DNA of 17,427 nucleotides from Escherichia coli (GCF_003334305.1 NZ_QOWS01000040.1); one strand, 5' to 3'. Shown: positions 11,573-17,427, counted from the first letter of the stretch. Notes: a model not told the origin generated them from the sequence alone. Numbers and translations: made by a program.

Positions 11573-11824
11573 GAGATAACCTCAAAAGCCCGTATTATAC
11601 ATCAGATTCAACCAATTAGAGGCATCACCCTTTCCTACATTCGTAGGACTTTGATTACATATAGCAAGGGTTAATTCTTATATACATAGAATAAATTAGG
11701 AATATAATGAATTTTATCGTGACGACCTTATTTATAATTAATTTATATCGTCAGAGAAATTAGTGTCCACAATATGAAGTCTTACAAAGAGATTCTATGA
11801 TTTAAAAAAAATAAGAGCCAGCTT

Positions 11825-13294
11825 ATGCATATCGATTCGACTGAAAAAAATAATAAACAAAAGTTGGGCTTGCTTGCGCTAACATCCATTGTCGTGAGCT
11901 CGATGATCGGCAGCGGCGTTGACGGACTCCCCCAGAATATGGCGGAGAATTCTGCCGTGGGCCCGGTGGCGATAGCATGGATAGTCTGTGGTATCGGCAT
12001 GTTTTTCATCTCCAGAACTTTTATCGTGCTGTCAAACATTAGACCTGATCTCCAGTCAGGAGTTTATATGTATGCCCGGGAAGGGTTCGGCCGATTTACG
12101 GCATTTAACGTCGCCTGGGGCTACTGGCTGATGACTATATTCAGCAACGTCGCCTTTGCCATTATGGTGATGGATACGCTGAATTATTTCTTACCAGGTG
12201 ATTTCAAGGGAGGGAACAATATTCCTTCCGTTATCGGTGCCTCTTTGCTGATATGGGGATTCAACTTTTTAGTCCTCTCCGGTACCCGCATTGCCGGGTC
12301 GATTAACATCGTCGGCACGCTGGCCAAACTGATCCCGCTGGTGGCCTTTATTATTATTCTCATGCTGTTTATGAAGTACACCACGTTCGCAGATAACGTC
12401 TGGGGGCACAGCGCGAGTAAGGCCAGTCAGGACCTAGGCTCTATTTTCTCACAGGTAACTTCACCGCTTAGCGTGGCACTCTGGAGCTTCATCGGCGTTG
12501 AGGGGGCTGTCGCTCTTTCCGGTCGGGCCAAAAATAAACGCGACGTGGGTAAAGCCACATTAATTGGCTTCGTTGTATCACTGATTATCTGTCTGCTGGT
12601 CTCCATCCTACCGTTTGGCGTGCTGACTCAACATGAGCTCAGCGCAATTCCAACCCCATCCACCGCCGGTATTCTGAAGATTGTTGTCGGTGAATGGGGG
12701 AAGATTATGATTATCTTGGGGGTGCTGATTTCGGTGCTTACCAGCTGGCTGGCGTGGACCATCATCTGCGCCGAACTGCCTATGGTGGCCGCGCAGAACG
12801 GCACATTCCCGAAACCGTTCAGCAAAAAAAATGTGAAGGGTTCGGCCTCGGTTTCGCTTTATATAAGCAGTGCGTTTATGCAAATCGTCGTACTTCTGGT
12901 CTACTTTTCTAACGATGCCTGGCTTGCAATGCTGGCTATCTCTACCCTGACCGTTTTACCTGCGTATTTAATGACCACGGCATACCTGTTTAAACTATGT
13001 ATTAGCGGCGAGTATGCCAGCTATACCACGAATCACAGCCGCAGCGCCGCGCTGGTCAGCAGTATTATCGGCTTTGTATTCTGCCTGTTTATGTTCTACG
13101 CCAGTGAAATCAAATATCTGGCGATGGTTCCGGTGCTGCTTACGCTGGGCGTGCCCCTGTTTATCTGGGCAAGAAAAAAAGACGATCGCGCAGATAAAAT
13201 ATTTACGCTACGCGAACTGGCATTTTTTATTTTACTGCTGGTCCTCGACATCATTGTTTTTATTCTACTGCATTATAAAACGATACATTTTTAG
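11825..13294 (+). CDS. APC-superfamily antiporter, ArcD/YdgI-type (paralogue 1)
   Basis: 489-aa polytopic membrane protein. Motifs shared with E. coli YdgI/ArcD: KLGLLALTSIVVSSMIGSG…LPQNMA, IRPDL…YAREGFG, NVAWGYWLM, LWSFIGVEGAV.LSGRAKNKRDVGKATL. The TM1 motif is GSGVDGLPQN instead of the usual G.GVFSLPQN. A 195-bp AT-rich upstream region separates it from the IS1 end; the RBS is weak (AAGAG). Confidence 0.85.
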   Translation: MHIDSTEKNNKQKLGLLALTSIVVSSMIGSGVDGLPQNMAENSAVGPVAIAWIVCGIGMFFISRTFIVLSNIRPDLQSGVYMYAREGFGRFTAFNVAWGYWLMTIFSNVAFAIMVMDTLNYFLPGDFKGGNNIPSVIGASLLIWGFNFLVLSGTRIAGSINIVGTLAKLIPLVAFIIILMLFMKYTTFADNVWGHSASKASQDLGSIFSQVTSPLSVALWSFIGVEGAVALSGRAKNKRDVGKATLIGFVVSLIICLLVSILPFGVLTQHELSAIPTPSTAGILKIVVGEWGKIMIILGVLISVLTSWLAWTIICAELPMVAAQNGTFPKPFSKKNVKGSASVSLYISSAFMQIVVLLVYFSNDAWLAMLAISTLTVLPAYLMTTAYLFKLCISGEYASYTTNHSRSAALVSSIIGFVFCLFMFYASEIKYLAMVPVLLTLGVPLFIWARKKDDRADKIFTLRELAFFILLLVLDIIVFILLHYKTIHF

Positions 13295-13398
13295 TCCAGA
13301 TTAATTCACAGCAAGTTAAGGTGACGATAATGTCTGTTTCTTGGGCATGACATCCTCACAGTTAAATACTATCTGAACAGTAACAGTGGAGACACCTA

Positions 13399-15768
13399 AT
13401 GAAATTTAACCACAATCTTTTATTTATTTCCTCACAATATCTTGATGGCGACAACCCTTCGCAGCAGGTACTGGAAGAGCTTCAAACCGAACTCGCGGAA
13501 CGCGGTTTTAAAATTCATATCACGCACCAGATCTCTGATGGATTAAAAATCATCGAAAAAAGCCCCCAATACAGCGGGATTGGTTTTTACTGGGAGCCAG
13601 ACAATCCGACCTTTGCAGAAGAGCTACAGCACTTTATCAGCATATTCCGCAAAAGAAATGCCACGACGCCGCTGATAATTTTCTCAGAACAGAATATTAC
13701 CGATCGTATCCCACTCGACGTCTTAAAAGAGGTCAGCGAATATGTTTATCTGTTCTCTGAATCCGCAGCCTTCACTGCCAATCGACTGTACTCCTTAGTC
13801 CACCGCTATGCGGATAAGCTTCTTCCTCCCTACTTTAAAACCCTTAAGGACTTTACCGAGGACGGTGACTATTACTGGGACTGCCCGGGGCATATGGGGG
13901 GAATGGCCTATCTGAAACATCCTGTTGGCATTGAGTTCATTAACTTCTTTGGCGAAAACATGATGCGCGCTGATATTGGCGTGGCTACCGCGGAGATGGG
14001 GGATTATCTGATCCACGCCGGACCGCCTAAAAAATCGGAAGAAATTGCGGCCCGACTGTTTGGCTCTGATTGGACCTTCTACGGTGTTTCCGGCTCATCG
14101 GGGTCGAACCGTATTGTGGCCCAGGCTGCGGTTGGCGCAGATGAAATTGCCATTATTGACCGAAATTGCCACAAGTCACTTAATCATGGCCTGACCTTGT
14201 CTCAGGCAAGGCCGGTTTACCTGAAACCTACCCGCAACGCGTGGGGGCTGATTGGGCCTATCCCGACCGGACGCCTGAAGAAGGCCAGTATTGATGCGCT
14301 GGTGGCAAACAGCCGACTAGCATCTGGTGCGGTCAGCCAGTCCCCGTCCTACGCCGTGGTAACCAACTGCACCTATGATGGCTTCTGTTATAACGTGAAC
14401 GATGTAGTCAGACACCTGGGTGAAAGCGCACCGCGCATCCATTTTGATGAAGCATGGTATGCCTATGCGCGTTTCCATCCGCTATACCAGAGTCGCTATG
14501 CAATGGACGCGGAGGAAACGCCAAATCGTCCAACCCTATTCGCCGTACAGTCCACCCATAAAATGCTGCCCTCACTCTCCATGGCCTCAATGATTCATGT
14601 GAAGAAAAGCGATCGCGCGCCGCTTAATTTCGATGACTTTAACGATGCCTTTATGATGCACGGCACGACCTCACCCTACTACCCGATCATTGCATCAATT
14701 GATGTGGCAGTAAGCATGATGGAGGGTGAATCCGGTTATTCGCTTGTGCAGGAGTCAATTGAAGAAGCGATTGCCTTCCGTAAAGCCGTGGTCAGCGTCA
14801 AGCGCCAGCTCCAGGAGCAGGAAGGTGGTGACGCCTGGTTCTTCGATGTGCTTCAGCCAACCGAAGTGCAGGACAGCGATTCTGGGCAGCGATACAGTTT
14901 TGAAGAGGCACCCGTATCGCTGCTGAGCCACAGCGCCGACTGCTGGTCGCTGCGCTCCGGTGAGCGCTGGCACGGTTTTGCCGATGATGATCTGGTCGAA
15001 ACCAACAGTATGCTCGATCCAGTAAAAGTGACCCTGACTTGTCCAGGGATCGGCCCGAAGGGAGAATACCAGAAAAACGGTATTCCGGGATATTTGCTGA
15101 CCCGTTTTCTCGATGACCGTCGCATTGAAATTGCCCGTACTGGTGACTACACCGTGCTGATCCTGTTCTCCGTCGGCATCACCAAAGGCAAATGGGGAAC
15201 TCTGATTGAAAGCCTGCTGGCCTTTAAAAAGCATTACGACAATGACGATCTGGCCACAGATGCTATCCCGTCGCTGAAAGCGCATTCTCCACACTACGAC
15301 ACGCTAACCCTCAAGGAGCTATGTCAGATAATGCATGAAAAAATGGATGAGCTGGAGCTGATGTCGCATATCAACGACGCGGTAAACACCGATCCGGAAC
15401 CAGTTATGACCCCGGCAGAAGCCTATCAGAAAGTCGTACGCTACAAAACCGAGCATATCCGGCTGGATGATTTTAGCGGCAGAATTGCCGCCAGCATGCT
15501 CGTCCCATATCCCCCAGGCATTCCTGTACTGATGCCGGGCGAACGGATGCCGCAAGGTAACAAGGGCATTATTGGCTATCTGCGCGCCCTGCAGGAATTC
15601 GATAAGCAATTCCCAGGTTTTGAACATGAGATCCAGGGCGTTAACGTCGATGAAAACGGGGACTTCTGGGTCAGAGCGATTGTGGAAGAAGAACGCGATG
15701 GGCAGTCGCTACCCGGCCACATAACCTTTAAACGCCAGGTCTCTGGTATTAAAAAGGGCCGCCAGTAG
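13399..15768 (+). CDS. PLP-dependent Orn/Lys/Arg decarboxylase, fold-type I, AdiA-like (789 aa), substrate unknown
   Basis: Shares blocks with E. coli AdiA and CadA: GSSGSNR, DRNCHKSL, PTRNA, VVTNCTYDG, HFDEAWYAYARF, STHKM (putative PLP lysine, codon at 14560-14562), MMHGTTSPYYPI, DVAVSMMEG, WHGF, MLDPVKVTL, FSVGITKGKWGTL, VPYPPGIPVLMPGE, FPGFEHEIQG. N-terminal wing-like domain present. GGAG RBS 8 nt upstream. About 34 aa longer than AdiA, with a C-terminal extension. Confidence 0.9.
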   Translation: MKFNHNLLFISSQYLDGDNPSQQVLEELQTELAERGFKIHITHQISDGLKIIEKSPQYSGIGFYWEPDNPTFAEELQHFISIFRKRNATTPLIIFSEQNITDRIPLDVLKEVSEYVYLFSESAAFTANRLYSLVHRYADKLLPPYFKTLKDFTEDGDYYWDCPGHMGGMAYLKHPVGIEFINFFGENMMRADIGVATAEMGDYLIHAGPPKKSEEIAARLFGSDWTFYGVSGSSGSNRIVAQAAVGADEIAIIDRNCHKSLNHGLTLSQARPVYLKPTRNAWGLIGPIPTGRLKKASIDALVANSRLASGAVSQSPSYAVVTNCTYDGFCYNVNDVVRHLGESAPRIHFDEAWYAYARFHPLYQSRYAMDAEETPNRPTLFAVQSTHKMLPSLSMASMIHVKKSDRAPLNFDDFNDAFMMHGTTSPYYPIIASIDVAVSMMEGESGYSLVQESIEEAIAFRKAVVSVKRQLQEQEGGDAWFFDVLQPTEVQDSDSGQRYSFEEAPVSLLSHSADCWSLRSGERWHGFADDDLVETNSMLDPVKVTLTCPGIGPKGEYQKNGIPGYLLTRFLDDRRIEIARTGDYTVLILFSVGITKGKWGTLIESLLAFKKHYDNDDLATDAIPSLKAHSPHYDTLTLKELCQIMHEKMDELELMSHINDAVNTDPEPVMTPAEAYQKVVRYKTEHIRLDDFSGRIAASMLVPYPPGIPVLMPGERMPQGNKGIIGYLRALQEFDKQFPGFEHEIQGVNVDENGDFWVRAIVEEERDGQSLPGHITFKRQVSGIKKGRQ

Positions 15769-15786
15769 GCGGGGGAAAGAACAATA

Positions 15787-15812
15787 CCGTCGGATCGCCT
15801 GCAATCCGACGG
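15787..15812 (+). other. Perfect 9-bp hairpin in the decarboxylase-antiporter intergenic region (possible attenuator or transcript-processing/stability element)
   Basis: CCGTCGGAT-cgcctgca-ATCCGACGG, 18 bp after the decarboxylase stop and 30 bp before the second antiporter ATG. No T-run follows, so it is not a classical full terminator. Confidence 0.4.
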
Positions 15813-15842
15813 CAATATTATAGAATAGCTGAGGGAAACGTT

Positions 15843-17342
15843 ATGGCAGAGCAATCTTCAGATGTAAAAAATAGTGACAATAGCGCCGGAGGACATAAGC
15901 TGGGGCTTATATCCCTCATCGCTATTGTCGTTAGCTCCATGCTGGGAGGCGGCGTTTTCAGTCTGCCGCAAAACACGGCGGCCTCTTCTGCACTAGGGCC
16001 AGTAATCATTGCATGGATTATTGCCGGGATCGGTATTTATTTTATCGCAAACTCCTTTCGCGTACTATCAGATCTGCGCCCGGACCTTCAGGCTGGAGTG
16101 TATATGTATGCCCAGGAAGGTTTTGGTTCCTTTATTGGCTTTAACGTCGCCTGGGGCTACTGGCTGATGACCGCATTTGGCAACGTTGCCTTTGCGGTAA
16201 TTTTAATGGATGCTTTTAATCAGTTTATGCCGGGGGTTTTTACGGATGGTAATAATCTGAACTCCATTATCTGCGGCTCAGTGCTGATCTGGGGCTATAA
16301 TTTTCTTGTTCTGTCCGGGACGAAAGTGGCCGGATTTGTTAACACCTTGGGAACCATCGCCAAGCTCGTCCCTCTGATCCTATTCGTATTACTGCTGGGT
16401 GTGCTGATCGATTATTCGGACCTGTTTAAAAATTTTTGGGGAGAATCACCCGCGATCCTCAGTGGCAACGGAAATGACGCCGCACCAGTATCGCTGCTGT
16501 CTCAGATTCTGGCACCGATGACCGTAACGCTCTGGGCCTTTATTGGCGTCGAGGGAGCGGTTGTTCTATCCGGACGTGCCAAAAATAAACAGGACGTAGG
16601 GAAAGCCACACTGATCGGCTTTCTGCTGGCGCTAATTATTTATATGTTAATGTCCATTCTGCCGTTCGGTGTAATGCCTCAGGCAGAACTAGCGCAGGTC
16701 AGTAACCCCTCTACCGCAGGCGTGCTCGCCCACGTTGTCGGTCAGTGGGGCGACTGGCTGATGAGCGCGGGGCTGATTATTTCTGTTCTGGCCGGCTGGC
16801 TTGCCTGGACCATGCTATGCGCTGAAATACCGATGGTAGCAGGACAGAAAGGCGCTTTCCCGCGCGCGTTTGCCCGAACGAACAGTAAACAGGCGGCCAA
16901 TGTGTCACTGTGGGTTAGTAGCTTTGTGATGCAGGCGGCCATGTTACTTGTTTATTTTTCAAATAATGCTTGGACCACCATGTATAATATCAGTGCGCTG
17001 ATGGTTGTTCCGGCCTATATTACCACCACGCTGTATCTGACCAGTATTTGCAGAAACGGAAAATATGATCAGTATGCAAAAAAAGGCCGCAGGCTGGCTT
17101 TGTCCAGCGGTGTTTTAGGCTCGCTATTCTGTCTGTTTATTCTTTACGCCAGCCAGATTGAGTATGTTGCATTAATTCCTATCCTGTTGACCTGTGGTCT
17201 GCCGGTCTTTATCTGGTCAAGAAAAGAAAAAAATGATGGTCAGCCGATATTTACCAAAAAAGAGCTGATTTATCTGATTATGCTGTTGCTGTGCGATATT
17301 ATCGTCGTTGCCCTGTTTATTGGTGGATATTTAAAGGTATAA
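15843..17342 (+). CDS. APC-superfamily antiporter, ArcD/YdgI-type (paralogue 2)
   Basis: 499-aa polytopic membrane protein with the canonical TM1 motif SSMLGGGVFSLPQNTA and FIGVEGAVVLSGRAKNKQDVGKATL. Roughly 55-60% identical to paralogue 1 by eye. GAGGGA RBS upstream. Confidence 0.9.
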   Translation: MAEQSSDVKNSDNSAGGHKLGLISLIAIVVSSMLGGGVFSLPQNTAASSALGPVIIAWIIAGIGIYFIANSFRVLSDLRPDLQAGVYMYAQEGFGSFIGFNVAWGYWLMTAFGNVAFAVILMDAFNQFMPGVFTDGNNLNSIICGSVLIWGYNFLVLSGTKVAGFVNTLGTIAKLVPLILFVLLLGVLIDYSDLFKNFWGESPAILSGNGNDAAPVSLLSQILAPMTVTLWAFIGVEGAVVLSGRAKNKQDVGKATLIGFLLALIIYMLMSILPFGVMPQAELAQVSNPSTAGVLAHVVGQWGDWLMSAGLIISVLAGWLAWTMLCAEIPMVAGQKGAFPRAFARTNSKQAANVSLWVSSFVMQAAMLLVYFSNNAWTTMYNISALMVVPAYITTTLYLTSICRNGKYDQYAKKGRRLALSSGVLGSLFCLFILYASQIEYVALIPILLTCGLPVFIWSRKEKNDGQPIFTKKELIYLIMLLLCDIIVVALFIGGYLKV

Positions 17343-17372
17343 GTCCGAGTTAAATCTTTACTGGGCTAGCAA

Positions 17373-17404
17373 TGCCGCCTTTTAAACAAGAAGGGCGGCA
17401 ATCT
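17373..17404 (+). terminator. Possible terminator hairpin after the second antiporter gene
   Basis: TGCCGCC-(14-nt loop)-GGCGGCA inverted repeat about 30 bp after the stop. Weak T-tract (aatctt), so confidence is low. Confidence 0.25.
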
Positions 17405-17427
17405 TACTGAAATTAGTATGCTGCAAA

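Follow-up and report, generated by a model that had tools for sequence, protein, structure and literature searches.

Organization of the window

The 17,427 bp stretch of Escherichia coli DNA analyzed here (the window) carries two cargo modules, the fecIRABCDE ferric-citrate uptake operon and a three-gene decarboxylase/antiporter cassette, and raises the question of whether a difference in their base composition records separate horizontal origins and, if so, which of the two is unusual for the host. The original prediction, made by eye, was that the decarboxylase locus is lower in GC than fec, that this would fit separate origins and that the cassette might be silenced by H-NS. Based on the results below, we consider it most probable (approximately 85%) that the window is a mosaic belonging to an E. 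coli genomic island, in which two independently acquired cargo modules are separated by decayed IS elements (Table 1). A GC contrast within a mosaic of separately acquired modules is nothing unusual, and features of this kind are well understood. In such a textbook island, a module may still carry the compositional imprint of its donor or may have shed it, and the contrast has little import beyond correct annotation.

Table 1. Features of the window, with positions counted from its first base
Feature	Position (bp)	Strand	Basis or comment
fecIRABCDE ferric-citrate uptake operon	235-7780	+	ORFs; RefSeq annotation of identical A7 region; composition
fecI	235-756	+	
fecR	753-1706	+	
fecA	1793-4117	+	
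fecB	4162-5064	+	
fecC	5061-6059	+	
fecD	6056-7012	+	
fecE	7013-7780	+	
Small hypothetical ORF downstream of fecE	8338-8595	-	A7 annotation
Frameshifted IS3-family element	8678-9844	-	NCBIfam IS3 transposase matches; annotation
AcuI/YhdH-type alcohol dehydrogenase (ADH), N-terminal fragment (remnant)	9917-10261	-	Profile matches; annotation; CFT073 comparison
Divergent, frameshifted IS1-family element	10865-11629	-	NCBIfam IS1 matches; ends read
Cassette leader, putative promoter region, 195 bp	11630-11824	+	27.2% GC
Promoter-like TATACA-16-TATAAT in leader	11681-11708	+	Sequence match, putative
Antiporter 1, APA-family basic amino acid/polyamine, 489 aa (CFT073 c4502)	11825-13294	+	TIGR00905
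AdiA-like fold-type I Orn/Lys/Arg-family PLP decarboxylase (predicted), 789 aa (CFT073 c4501)	13399-15768	+	
Inverted repeat, 13-bp stem, in decarboxylase-antiporter 2 spacer	15785-15814	.	
Antiporter 2, 499 aa (CFT073 c4500)	15843-17342	+	Paralogue of antiporter 1

In strain A7, the window exactly fills the interval between two inverted copies of IS1F. The IS3-family element separates the two modules and occupies the place that IS911 holds beside fec in K-12, while the small ORF downstream of fecE is the positional equivalent of the K-12 pseudogene yjhV (matched by position, not by alignment). The ADH fragment also adjoins the cassette in CFT073. The predicted start of the decarboxylase locus at bp 11630 is exact, with the last base of the IS1-like element at bp 11629; this element abuts and truncates the upstream region of the cassette, and is so divergent that a blastn comparison with IS1F gave no match. 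An Rfam scan of the whole window identified no RNA family, and thus no leader riboswitch or attenuator of known kind.

Base composition of the two modules

The fec operon has a GC content of 58.0% (58.6% for fecCDE, bp 5061-7780) and the decarboxylase locus (bp 11630-17427) one of 48.7%, so the predicted contrast was confirmed at approximately nine GC points (chi-square 114, p = 1e-26). When the genes were compared for GC and GC3, as had been proposed as a check, both measures differed between the modules: pooled GC3 is 67.7% for fec and 56.6% for the cassette (chi-square 55, p = 1e-13). Individual fec genes have a GC content of 54.0-60.9% and a GC3 of 60-71%, while the corresponding values are 48.7% and 59.0% for antiporter 1, 51.4% and 57.5% for the decarboxylase gene and 48.4% and 52.8% for antiporter 2. 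The gene starts and leader of the cassette had been singled out as particularly AT-rich, and both are: the first 90 nt of the three genes have a GC content of 42%, 39% and 44% (7th, 3rd and 10th percentiles among 105 annotated host genes), and that of the leader, at 27.2%, places it in the bottom 0.16% when 195-bp windows are taken across 225 kb of host DNA.

The implied direction of the contrast, with the cassette as an AT-rich outlier, proved to be wrong. The host reference was a 225-kb sample of the same E. coli chromosome (strain A7), in which 145 ORFs were called mechanically, rather than the whole core genome, and the modules were compared with host windows (n = 498, of equal size in the case of fec). 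It is fec that is the compositional outlier in E. coli: its GC content exceeds that of all 498 host windows (maximum 55.4%), its GC3 of up to 0.71 lies at the 100th percentile of the host sample and its dinucleotide delta* of 57 lies in the 4% tail. In contrast, the GC content of the cassette locus lies at the 19th percentile, and the overall GC, GC3 and codon usage of the cassette are indistinguishable from those of host genes. For antiporter 1, the decarboxylase gene and antiporter 2, respectively, the z-scores against the host sample are -0.88, -0.22 and -0.96 for GC and +0.26, +0.04 and -0.65 for GC3. Codon-bias distances of the cassette genes are low (0.20, 0.21 and 0.33; host median 0.30), and their CAI values are 0.35-0.42 (host mean 0.44). 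Against this 225-kb sample, the cassette did not show foreign GC, GC3 or codon usage. Its values are also bracketed by those of E. coli's own cadBA genes (47.6% and 49.4% GC) and adiA and adiC (52.7% and 53.7%).

Only three features set the cassette apart from the host: its dinucleotide signature, the low GC1 of its antiporter genes and its very AT-rich leader. Because its delta* of 80.5 lies in the 0.3% tail (host-window mean 40), the cassette cannot be called host-like on all counts, but the specificity of delta* is limited, as the native cadBA genes score 80.2 (2.4% tail). GC1 is 0.478 for antiporter 1 (z = -2.1) and 0.520 for antiporter 2 (z = -1.3), and the former value may be what remains of the composition of a donor with lower GC, as opposed to a constraint of the protein family. 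To be lower in GC than a neighbour is not to be AT-rich for the host. The description of the cassette as AT-rich is accurate when fec is the reference and, within the cassette, for the leader and the first codon positions of the antiporters, but not otherwise; relative to the host, the leader and gene starts are AT-rich and the gene bodies are not.

A Muto-Osawa back-calculation from GC1 and GC3 gives approximately 58-59% GC for fec, and this operon may have retained the composition of a donor lineage with roughly 57-59% GC. The host-like composition of the cassette would reflect a stay in the host long enough for amelioration, or else a donor whose GC was similar.

H-NS and StpA binding

Published ChIP-seq data (Hustmyer et al. 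2022) are available for CFT073, which is not the source strain of the window and in which the cassette locus (NC_004431.1, 4,284,198-4,289,968) is 99.9% identical. Both antiporter genes, c4500 and c4502, are scored as H-NS- and StpA-bound in this strain, while the decarboxylase gene c4501 is absent from the bound list (PMC9765446, Data set S1E). On a scale of 0-1, H-NS occupancy is 0.116 for c4500 (antiporter 2) and 0.106 for c4502 (antiporter 1), and this signal is lost in an hns deletion strain; the weakest genes scored as bound have values of approximately 0.08 and strongly silenced islands values of 0.5-0.9 (PMC9765446). The suggestion of H-NS involvement is therefore partly supported at the level of binding, which is weak and partial, just above the cut-off and limited to the antiporter genes. 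The locus shares with xenogeneic silencing by H-NS/StpA an AT-rich promoter-proximal stretch and measured occupancy on lineage-specific genes. Unlike typical cases, however, occupancy is near the cut-off, none is scored on the central gene and the coding DNA is not AT-rich for the host. It is likely that the leader and the AT-rich gene starts would serve as nucleation points for the weak binding in CFT073. A scan for the H-NS motif TCGATAAATT with up to two mismatches was uninformative, with 14 matches (one of them, with two mismatches, in the leader) against 13.0 expected and thus no enrichment.

The low GC of the leader and gene starts, the atypical dinucleotide signature and the presence of both antiporter genes on the bound list might instead point to recent import of the decarboxylase locus as an AT-rich module of foreign origin, silenced by H-NS as xenogeneic, with fec having the more normal composition. 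Named homologues, which occur in low-GC Morganellaceae and also in Hafnia, are consistent with such an import. We believe this explanation to be unlikely for three reasons. First, GC, GC3, CAI and codon bias of the cassette coding sequences are host-typical, while fec lies outside the host range. Second, the occupancy values are close to the floor for bound genes and far from those of strongly silenced islands. Third, the decarboxylase gene is missing from the genes scored as bound. In addition, nothing points to a recent donor for the cassette, because protein identity to the closest homologues outside E. coli reaches only 87%.

Protein composition

A GC difference could also arise with no historical signal, from the amino acid composition of the encoded proteins and the non-coding DNA included in bp 11630-17427. 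The low GC of the antiporter genes does sit in GC1, with GC3 normal; their FYMINK content is 0.30-0.32, as compared to 0.15-0.17 for fecC and fecD, and the leader and spacers pull the mean of the interval down from the 49.8% of the coding sequence alone. However, the difference in GC3 between the modules is beyond the reach of protein composition, and fecC and fecD also encode polytopic membrane proteins yet have a GC1 of 0.64-0.66. As the independent distributions described below show separate histories directly, we regard this second explanation as quite improbable. Under the mosaic reading, the contrast exists mostly because fec is GC-rich; a smaller share is due to the A/T-starting, FYMINK-rich codons of the antiporters and the remainder to AT-rich regulatory DNA around the cassette genes.

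Distribution and boundaries

Separate origins of the two modules, as originally predicted, draw most of their support from distribution and IS boundaries rather than from AT-richness. Among 5426 complete E. coli genomes, fec is present in 2743 (at ≥99% identity) and the cassette in 495 (approximately 9%). The whole window is found at ≥80% coverage in only 20 of these genomes, and the two modules stand side by side, with IS elements between them, in only about 20. Plasmid records (PLSDB) also differ: fec is found in 1305, mostly from Klebsiella (at approximately 94.5% identity) but also from Enterobacter, while the cassette is covered by none of the 223 matching records, which match only at the IS1 end.

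Each module also occurs without the other. In the KpLE2 region of K-12, the order is IS1F-ykiE-fec-yjhV-IS911. The operon, the IS1F and ykiE that precede it and the IS3-family element that follows it are all shared, but there is no cassette: where the window continues after its IS3-family element with the ADH fragment, the divergent IS1 and the cassette, K-12 has yjhE and yjhD. Conversely, the selC-associated island of uropathogenic CFT073 has the order IS3/IS30-ADH fragment-IS1-cassette-IS1 and lacks fec. There, the three genes (c4500-c4502), the leader and both IS1 junctions are 99.9% identical to those of the window, but the cassette adjoins genes for anti-phage defence and an IS3 element interrupted by IS30. 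IS1-family elements thus flank the cassette on both sides in the selC island of CFT073 and in another island in A7, while fec has IS1F on its upstream side and an IS3-family element on its downstream side. Both modules are marked as acquired by their patchy distribution and mobile-element boundaries; atypical composition adds to this for fec, and for the cassette so does its dinucleotide signature, within the limited specificity of that measure. It is well supported that fec and the cassette have separate histories.

It is highly improbable that fec and the cassette move jointly as one IS1F-bounded composite transposon gained in a single acquisition, since, although the A7 window is bracketed by inverted IS1F copies 98.4-99.7% identical to K-12 IS1F, there is no target-site duplication outside this pair (no shared flanking 9-mer), the joint arrangement is rare relative to either module and the right-hand cassette-IS1 junction is identical in CFT073. 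An IS1 composite transposon was also considered and rejected: its arms do not match (the left cassette IS1 is too divergent) and there are no target duplications.

Homologous cassettes with the same gene order (78-87% amino acid identity) were identified in three unrelated contexts, and the cassette is a self-contained three-gene unit that keeps this order in other Enterobacterales. The GC contents of these three cassettes (42.8%, 45.1% and 47.6%) are within a few points of those of their respective flanks (40.7%, 48.0% and 52.1%). Upstream regions of homologous cassettes (470-743 bp) are always AT-rich. When the leader was aligned with the corresponding DNA of four homologous cassettes, no block proved to be conserved (mean column identity 58%, with AT-rich sequence along the whole alignment), so no shared operator can be defined.

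The decarboxylase/antiporter cassette

A useful by-product of this analysis is the recognition of an accessory decarboxylase/antiporter cassette that occurs fairly commonly in E. coli and is also carried by the model uropathogen CFT073. A literature search (c4499-c4504 locus tags, selC context and fec/IS history) returned nothing on this cassette.

The central gene is predicted to encode a member of the fold-type I Orn/Lys/Arg decarboxylase family, based on its domains and active-site motif. Precomputed Pfam matches for a cluster representative 99% identical to the protein are OKR_DC_1_N, OKR_DC_1 and OKR_DC_1_C, and the PLP-lysine S-x-H-K motif is found as STHK at residues 385-388 (383-386 in AdiA). 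The protein matches the solved AdiA, LdcI and ODC structures (E-values 1e-190 to 1e-104) and is 38.8% identical to K-12 AdiA and 36.1% to CadA. It scores below every NCBIfam equivalog cut-off, including that of the AdiA model NF011603 (740 bits, cut-off 1167). The two antiporters are paralogues (55% identity) that exceed the TIGR00905 cut-off of 409 bits, with scores of 488 and 493 for antiporters 1 and 2, respectively, and fall below the cut-offs of all the substrate-specific equivalog models (ArcD, AdiC, CadB, PotE and histidine-histamine).

The closest known counterparts are the AdiA/AdiC (arginine) and CadA/CadB (lysine) acid resistance systems, which likewise pair a large fold-type I PLP decarboxylase with an APC-superfamily antiporter. 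Like AdiA and CadA, the cassette enzyme has wing, core and C-terminal domains and a lysine-bearing STHK motif, and the cassette resembles the adi and cad systems in its AT-rich promoter region and comparable coding GC. Its antiporters are of the ArcD/TIGR00905 type, 28.6% and 30.8% identical to AdiC. In contrast to adi and cad, the enzyme is flanked by two antiporters, and none of the contexts examined has an AdiY- or CadC-type regulator gene next to the cassette.

From this gene content, the cassette may provide inducible amino acid decarboxylation and antiport, either for acid tolerance or for polyamine production. More speculatively, and with considerable doubt on our part, it might constitute an additional amino acid-dependent acid-resistance or polyamine-producing system with a substrate or exchange logic possibly unlike that of the known Glu, Arg, Lys and Orn systems, with the two ArcD-type antiporters perhaps handling different substrate/product pairs and with expression kept low by weak H-NS/StpA binding that nucleates at the IS1-truncated leader. 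H-NS/StpA occupancy data are already available for the cassette, which would be easy to test.

Organization of the window

The window is part of an E. coli chromosomal island. It is 100% identical to strain A7 (NZ_CP028767.1), and the same arrangement is found in approximately 20 complete E. coli genomes. Its features are listed below. The start originally given for the decarboxylase locus is exact: bp 11630 is the first base past the IS1-like element. By blastn, this element does not match IS1F, and only its proteins fit the IS1 model. In the window, fecI (173 codons) is intact; the A7 copy (L002 16236-16758) is annotated as frameshifted and has one additional base. The probable source of the window is therefore another of the genomes with 100.0% identity rather than A7.

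Features of the window
Feature	Position	Strand	Remarks
fecI, fecR, fecA, fecB, fecC, fecD, fecE	235-7780		fecI, 235-756; fecCDE, 5061-7780
Small hypothetical ORF	8338-8595	-	
IS3-family element	8678-9844		Frameshifted
AcuI-type alcohol dehydrogenase (ADH)	9917-10261		N-terminal fragment
Non-coding stretch	10217-10480		29% GC
IS1-family element	10865-11629		Divergent, frameshifted
Leader	11630-11824		195 bp
Antiporter 1	11825-13294		APA-family
Decarboxylase	13399-15768		AdiA-like PLP, 789 aa
Inverted repeat	15785-15814		13-bp stem
Antiporter 2	15843-17342		55% identity to antiporter 1

The non-coding stretch between the ADH fragment and the IS1-like element has the lowest GC content of the window after the leader and lies outside the cassette. 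The 74 bp that separate the decarboxylase and antiporter 2 genes contain the inverted repeat (TACCGTCGGATCGCC...GCAATCCGACGGCA), which might form a hairpin acting in mRNA processing or stability, or represent a REP-like element.

Base composition

The original prediction was that the decarboxylase locus is lower in GC than the fec operon, and this proved correct: the GC content is 58.0% for the operon (58.6% for fecCDE) and 48.7% for bp 11630-17427 (chi-square 114, p = 1e-26). The modules also differ at synonymous sites, with pooled GC3 values of 67.7% and 56.6%, respectively (p = 1e-13). The leader and gene starts are AT-rich, as had been noted by eye. The leader has a GC content of 27.2%. 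Over their first 90 nt, the three cassette genes have GC contents of 42%, 39% and 44%, which correspond to the 7th, 3rd and 10th percentiles among 105 annotated genes of the host.

To determine which module departs from the host, a reference was assembled from five 50-kb segments of A7 chromosomal DNA, minus a prophage and island stretch (225 kb, 51.3% GC, 145 long ORFs; gene averages: GC 52.2%, sd 4.0; GC3 57.2%, sd 6.8). CAI was based on 30 K-12 ribosomal-protein, elongation-factor and rpoA genes.

Composition of the cassette genes relative to the host
Gene	GC z	GC3 z	Karlin codon-bias distance	CAI
Antiporter 1	-0.88	+0.26	0.20	0.35
Decarboxylase	-0.22	+0.04	0.21	0.42
Antiporter 2	-0.96	-0.65	0.33	0.36
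Host			0.30 (median)	0.44 (mean)

By these values, the cassette genes are unremarkable. As a 5.8-kb block, the locus is at the 19th percentile among host windows. The fec operon, at 58.0% GC, exceeds all 498 host windows of equal size (maximum 55.4%), with fecA, fecC and fecD reaching the 99-100th percentile in both GC and GC3. The acid-resistance genes of E. coli bracket the cassette in GC (cadA 47.6%, cadB 49.4%, adiA 52.7%, adiC 53.7%), and the cad and adi leaders are 33-35% GC. The contrast therefore stems mainly from the high GC of fec rather than from AT-richness of the decarboxylase locus; of the two modules, fec is the GC-rich outlier.

The antiporter genes owe their low GC to the first codon position (GC1 of 0.478 and 0.520; z-scores of -2.1 and -1.3), and their FYMINK content is high. 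The dinucleotide distance (delta*) from the host is 80.5 for the cassette (host mean 40; 0.3% tail) and 57 for fec (4% tail), compared with 80.2 for native cadBA and 90-104 for a clearly foreign island in the same genome. Homologous cassettes in other hosts (L009, L011 and L013) share the dinucleotide signature of the E. coli cassette (high CC/GG, low CG, high TA), although their GC3 varies with the host. The leader falls within the lowest 0.16% of 195-bp host windows, but the 225-kb reference contains approximately 16 blocks that are comparably AT-rich (≤30% GC). Most of these precede genes (cyoA and stpA, for example), separate acrB from tomB or belong to island remnants.

Separate histories of fec and the cassette

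Separate origins of the two modules, also part of the original prediction, are well supported by distribution and IS context, which are more direct evidence than composition. At ≥99% identity, fec is present in 2743 of 5426 complete E. coli genomes; it also occurs in 1305 plasmid records, 1163 of them from Klebsiella (typical identity ~94.5%). The cassette is present in 495 of the 5426 genomes and on no PLSDB plasmid, where the sole match is to its IS1 end. The two are adjacent in only ~20 complete genomes. K-12 has the order IS1F-ykiE-fec-yjhV-IS911 without the cassette, while the CFT073 selC island carries an IS3/IS30 remnant, the ADH fragment, the IS1-like element, the cassette and a downstream IS1 without fec. 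The cassette-IS1 junction is identical in CFT073 and A7. Muto-Osawa back-calculation from GC1 and GC3 gives a fec donor of ~58-59% GC, a value in line with Klebsiella- or Enterobacter-like genomes. Overall, the original prediction is confirmed as to base composition and partly supported in its interpretation. The feature is an ordinary compositional mosaic of two cargo modules parted by IS elements.

In A7, the window exactly fills the gap between inverted IS1F copies (L002 15231-15998 and 33432-34199; 99.7% and 98.4% identity to K-12 IS1F), and no 9-bp target duplication is present outside this pair. An IS3-family element broken by IS30 adjoins the cassette in CFT073 (L001 15617-18205), and IS911 broken by IS30 adjoins fec in K-12 (L014 7126-9802). 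If these IS30 insertions are the same, there may have been an older fec-IS911-cassette layout that decayed differently by lineage.

H-NS binding

Possible H-NS silencing of the locus had also been proposed. Nothing in the composition of the cassette coding DNA points to xenogeneic silencing, and scanning for H-NS motifs was uninformative. H-NS and StpA have been mapped by ChIP-seq in CFT073 (Hustmyer et al. 2022, PMC9765446), where the locus is 99.9% identical to the window; CFT073 tags were assigned to the cassette genes by exact gene length and neighbour-gene order. On an occupancy scale of 0-1 (cut-off 0.07 of maximal signal), H-NS occupancy is 0.116 for c4500 (antiporter 2, 1500 nt) and 0.106 for c4502 (antiporter 1, 1470 nt), and the decarboxylase gene c4501 is not among the H-NS-bound genes (PMC9765446, Data set S1E). 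Both antiporter genes were scored as H-NS- and StpA-bound in the wild type and in rfaH and stpA deletions, and their H-NS signal drops to background (0.02-0.03) in an hns deletion. The weakest genes listed as bound have occupancies of ~0.08 and strongly silenced islands 0.5-0.9, and ~33% of CFT073-specific genes are H-NS-bound (PMC9765446). As both occupancies are near the cut-off and c4501 is unlisted, binding is real but weak and patchy. Such a pattern would fit nucleation at the AT-rich leader, spacers and gene starts.

Predicted function and homologues of the cassette

All three domains of wing-domain Orn/Lys/Arg decarboxylases are present in the cassette enzyme, together with the STHK PLP-lysine motif. 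In structure searches, AdiA proteins are its best matches (E-value: 1e-190). The enzyme is only 38.8% identical to AdiA and 36.1% to CadA, and it scores under all NCBIfam equivalog cut-offs (AdiA model, 740 vs 1167). Both antiporters exceed the TIGR00905 subfamily cut-off but pass none of the substrate-specific models. The cassette most likely functions in inducible decarboxylation of a basic amino acid and in exchange of that amino acid for its amine product, which would consume protons as AdiA/AdiC or CadA/CadB do. A literature search found no paper on the cassette. Uncharacterized and weakly H-NS-bound, it is the only lead worth following in an otherwise ordinary feature.

The cassette acts as a unit: its three genes recur in the same order (78-87% protein identity) in three unrelated chromosomal contexts from metagenomic or isolate assemblies, with GC contents (42.8, 45.1 and 47.6%) within a few points of the flanks (40.7, 48.0 and 52.1%). 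Each has an AT-rich upstream region of 470-743 bp, which in the E. coli copy is reduced to 195 bp by the IS1-like element, and no regulator gene is adjacent in any of the three. As the nearest named homologues (Hafnia, Proteus and Providencia) are only 75-77% identical, no recent donor is evident. One homologous cassette (L011 15758-20928, 78% identity), flanked by DNA of ~41% GC in a genome of 4.5 Mb, adjoins genes whose products have domains of CoA-transferases and thiamine-diphosphate enzymes. By their Pfam domains, these look like the frc/oxc genes of oxalate degradation (acid tolerance), which hints at an acid-fitness neighbourhood for this cassette.
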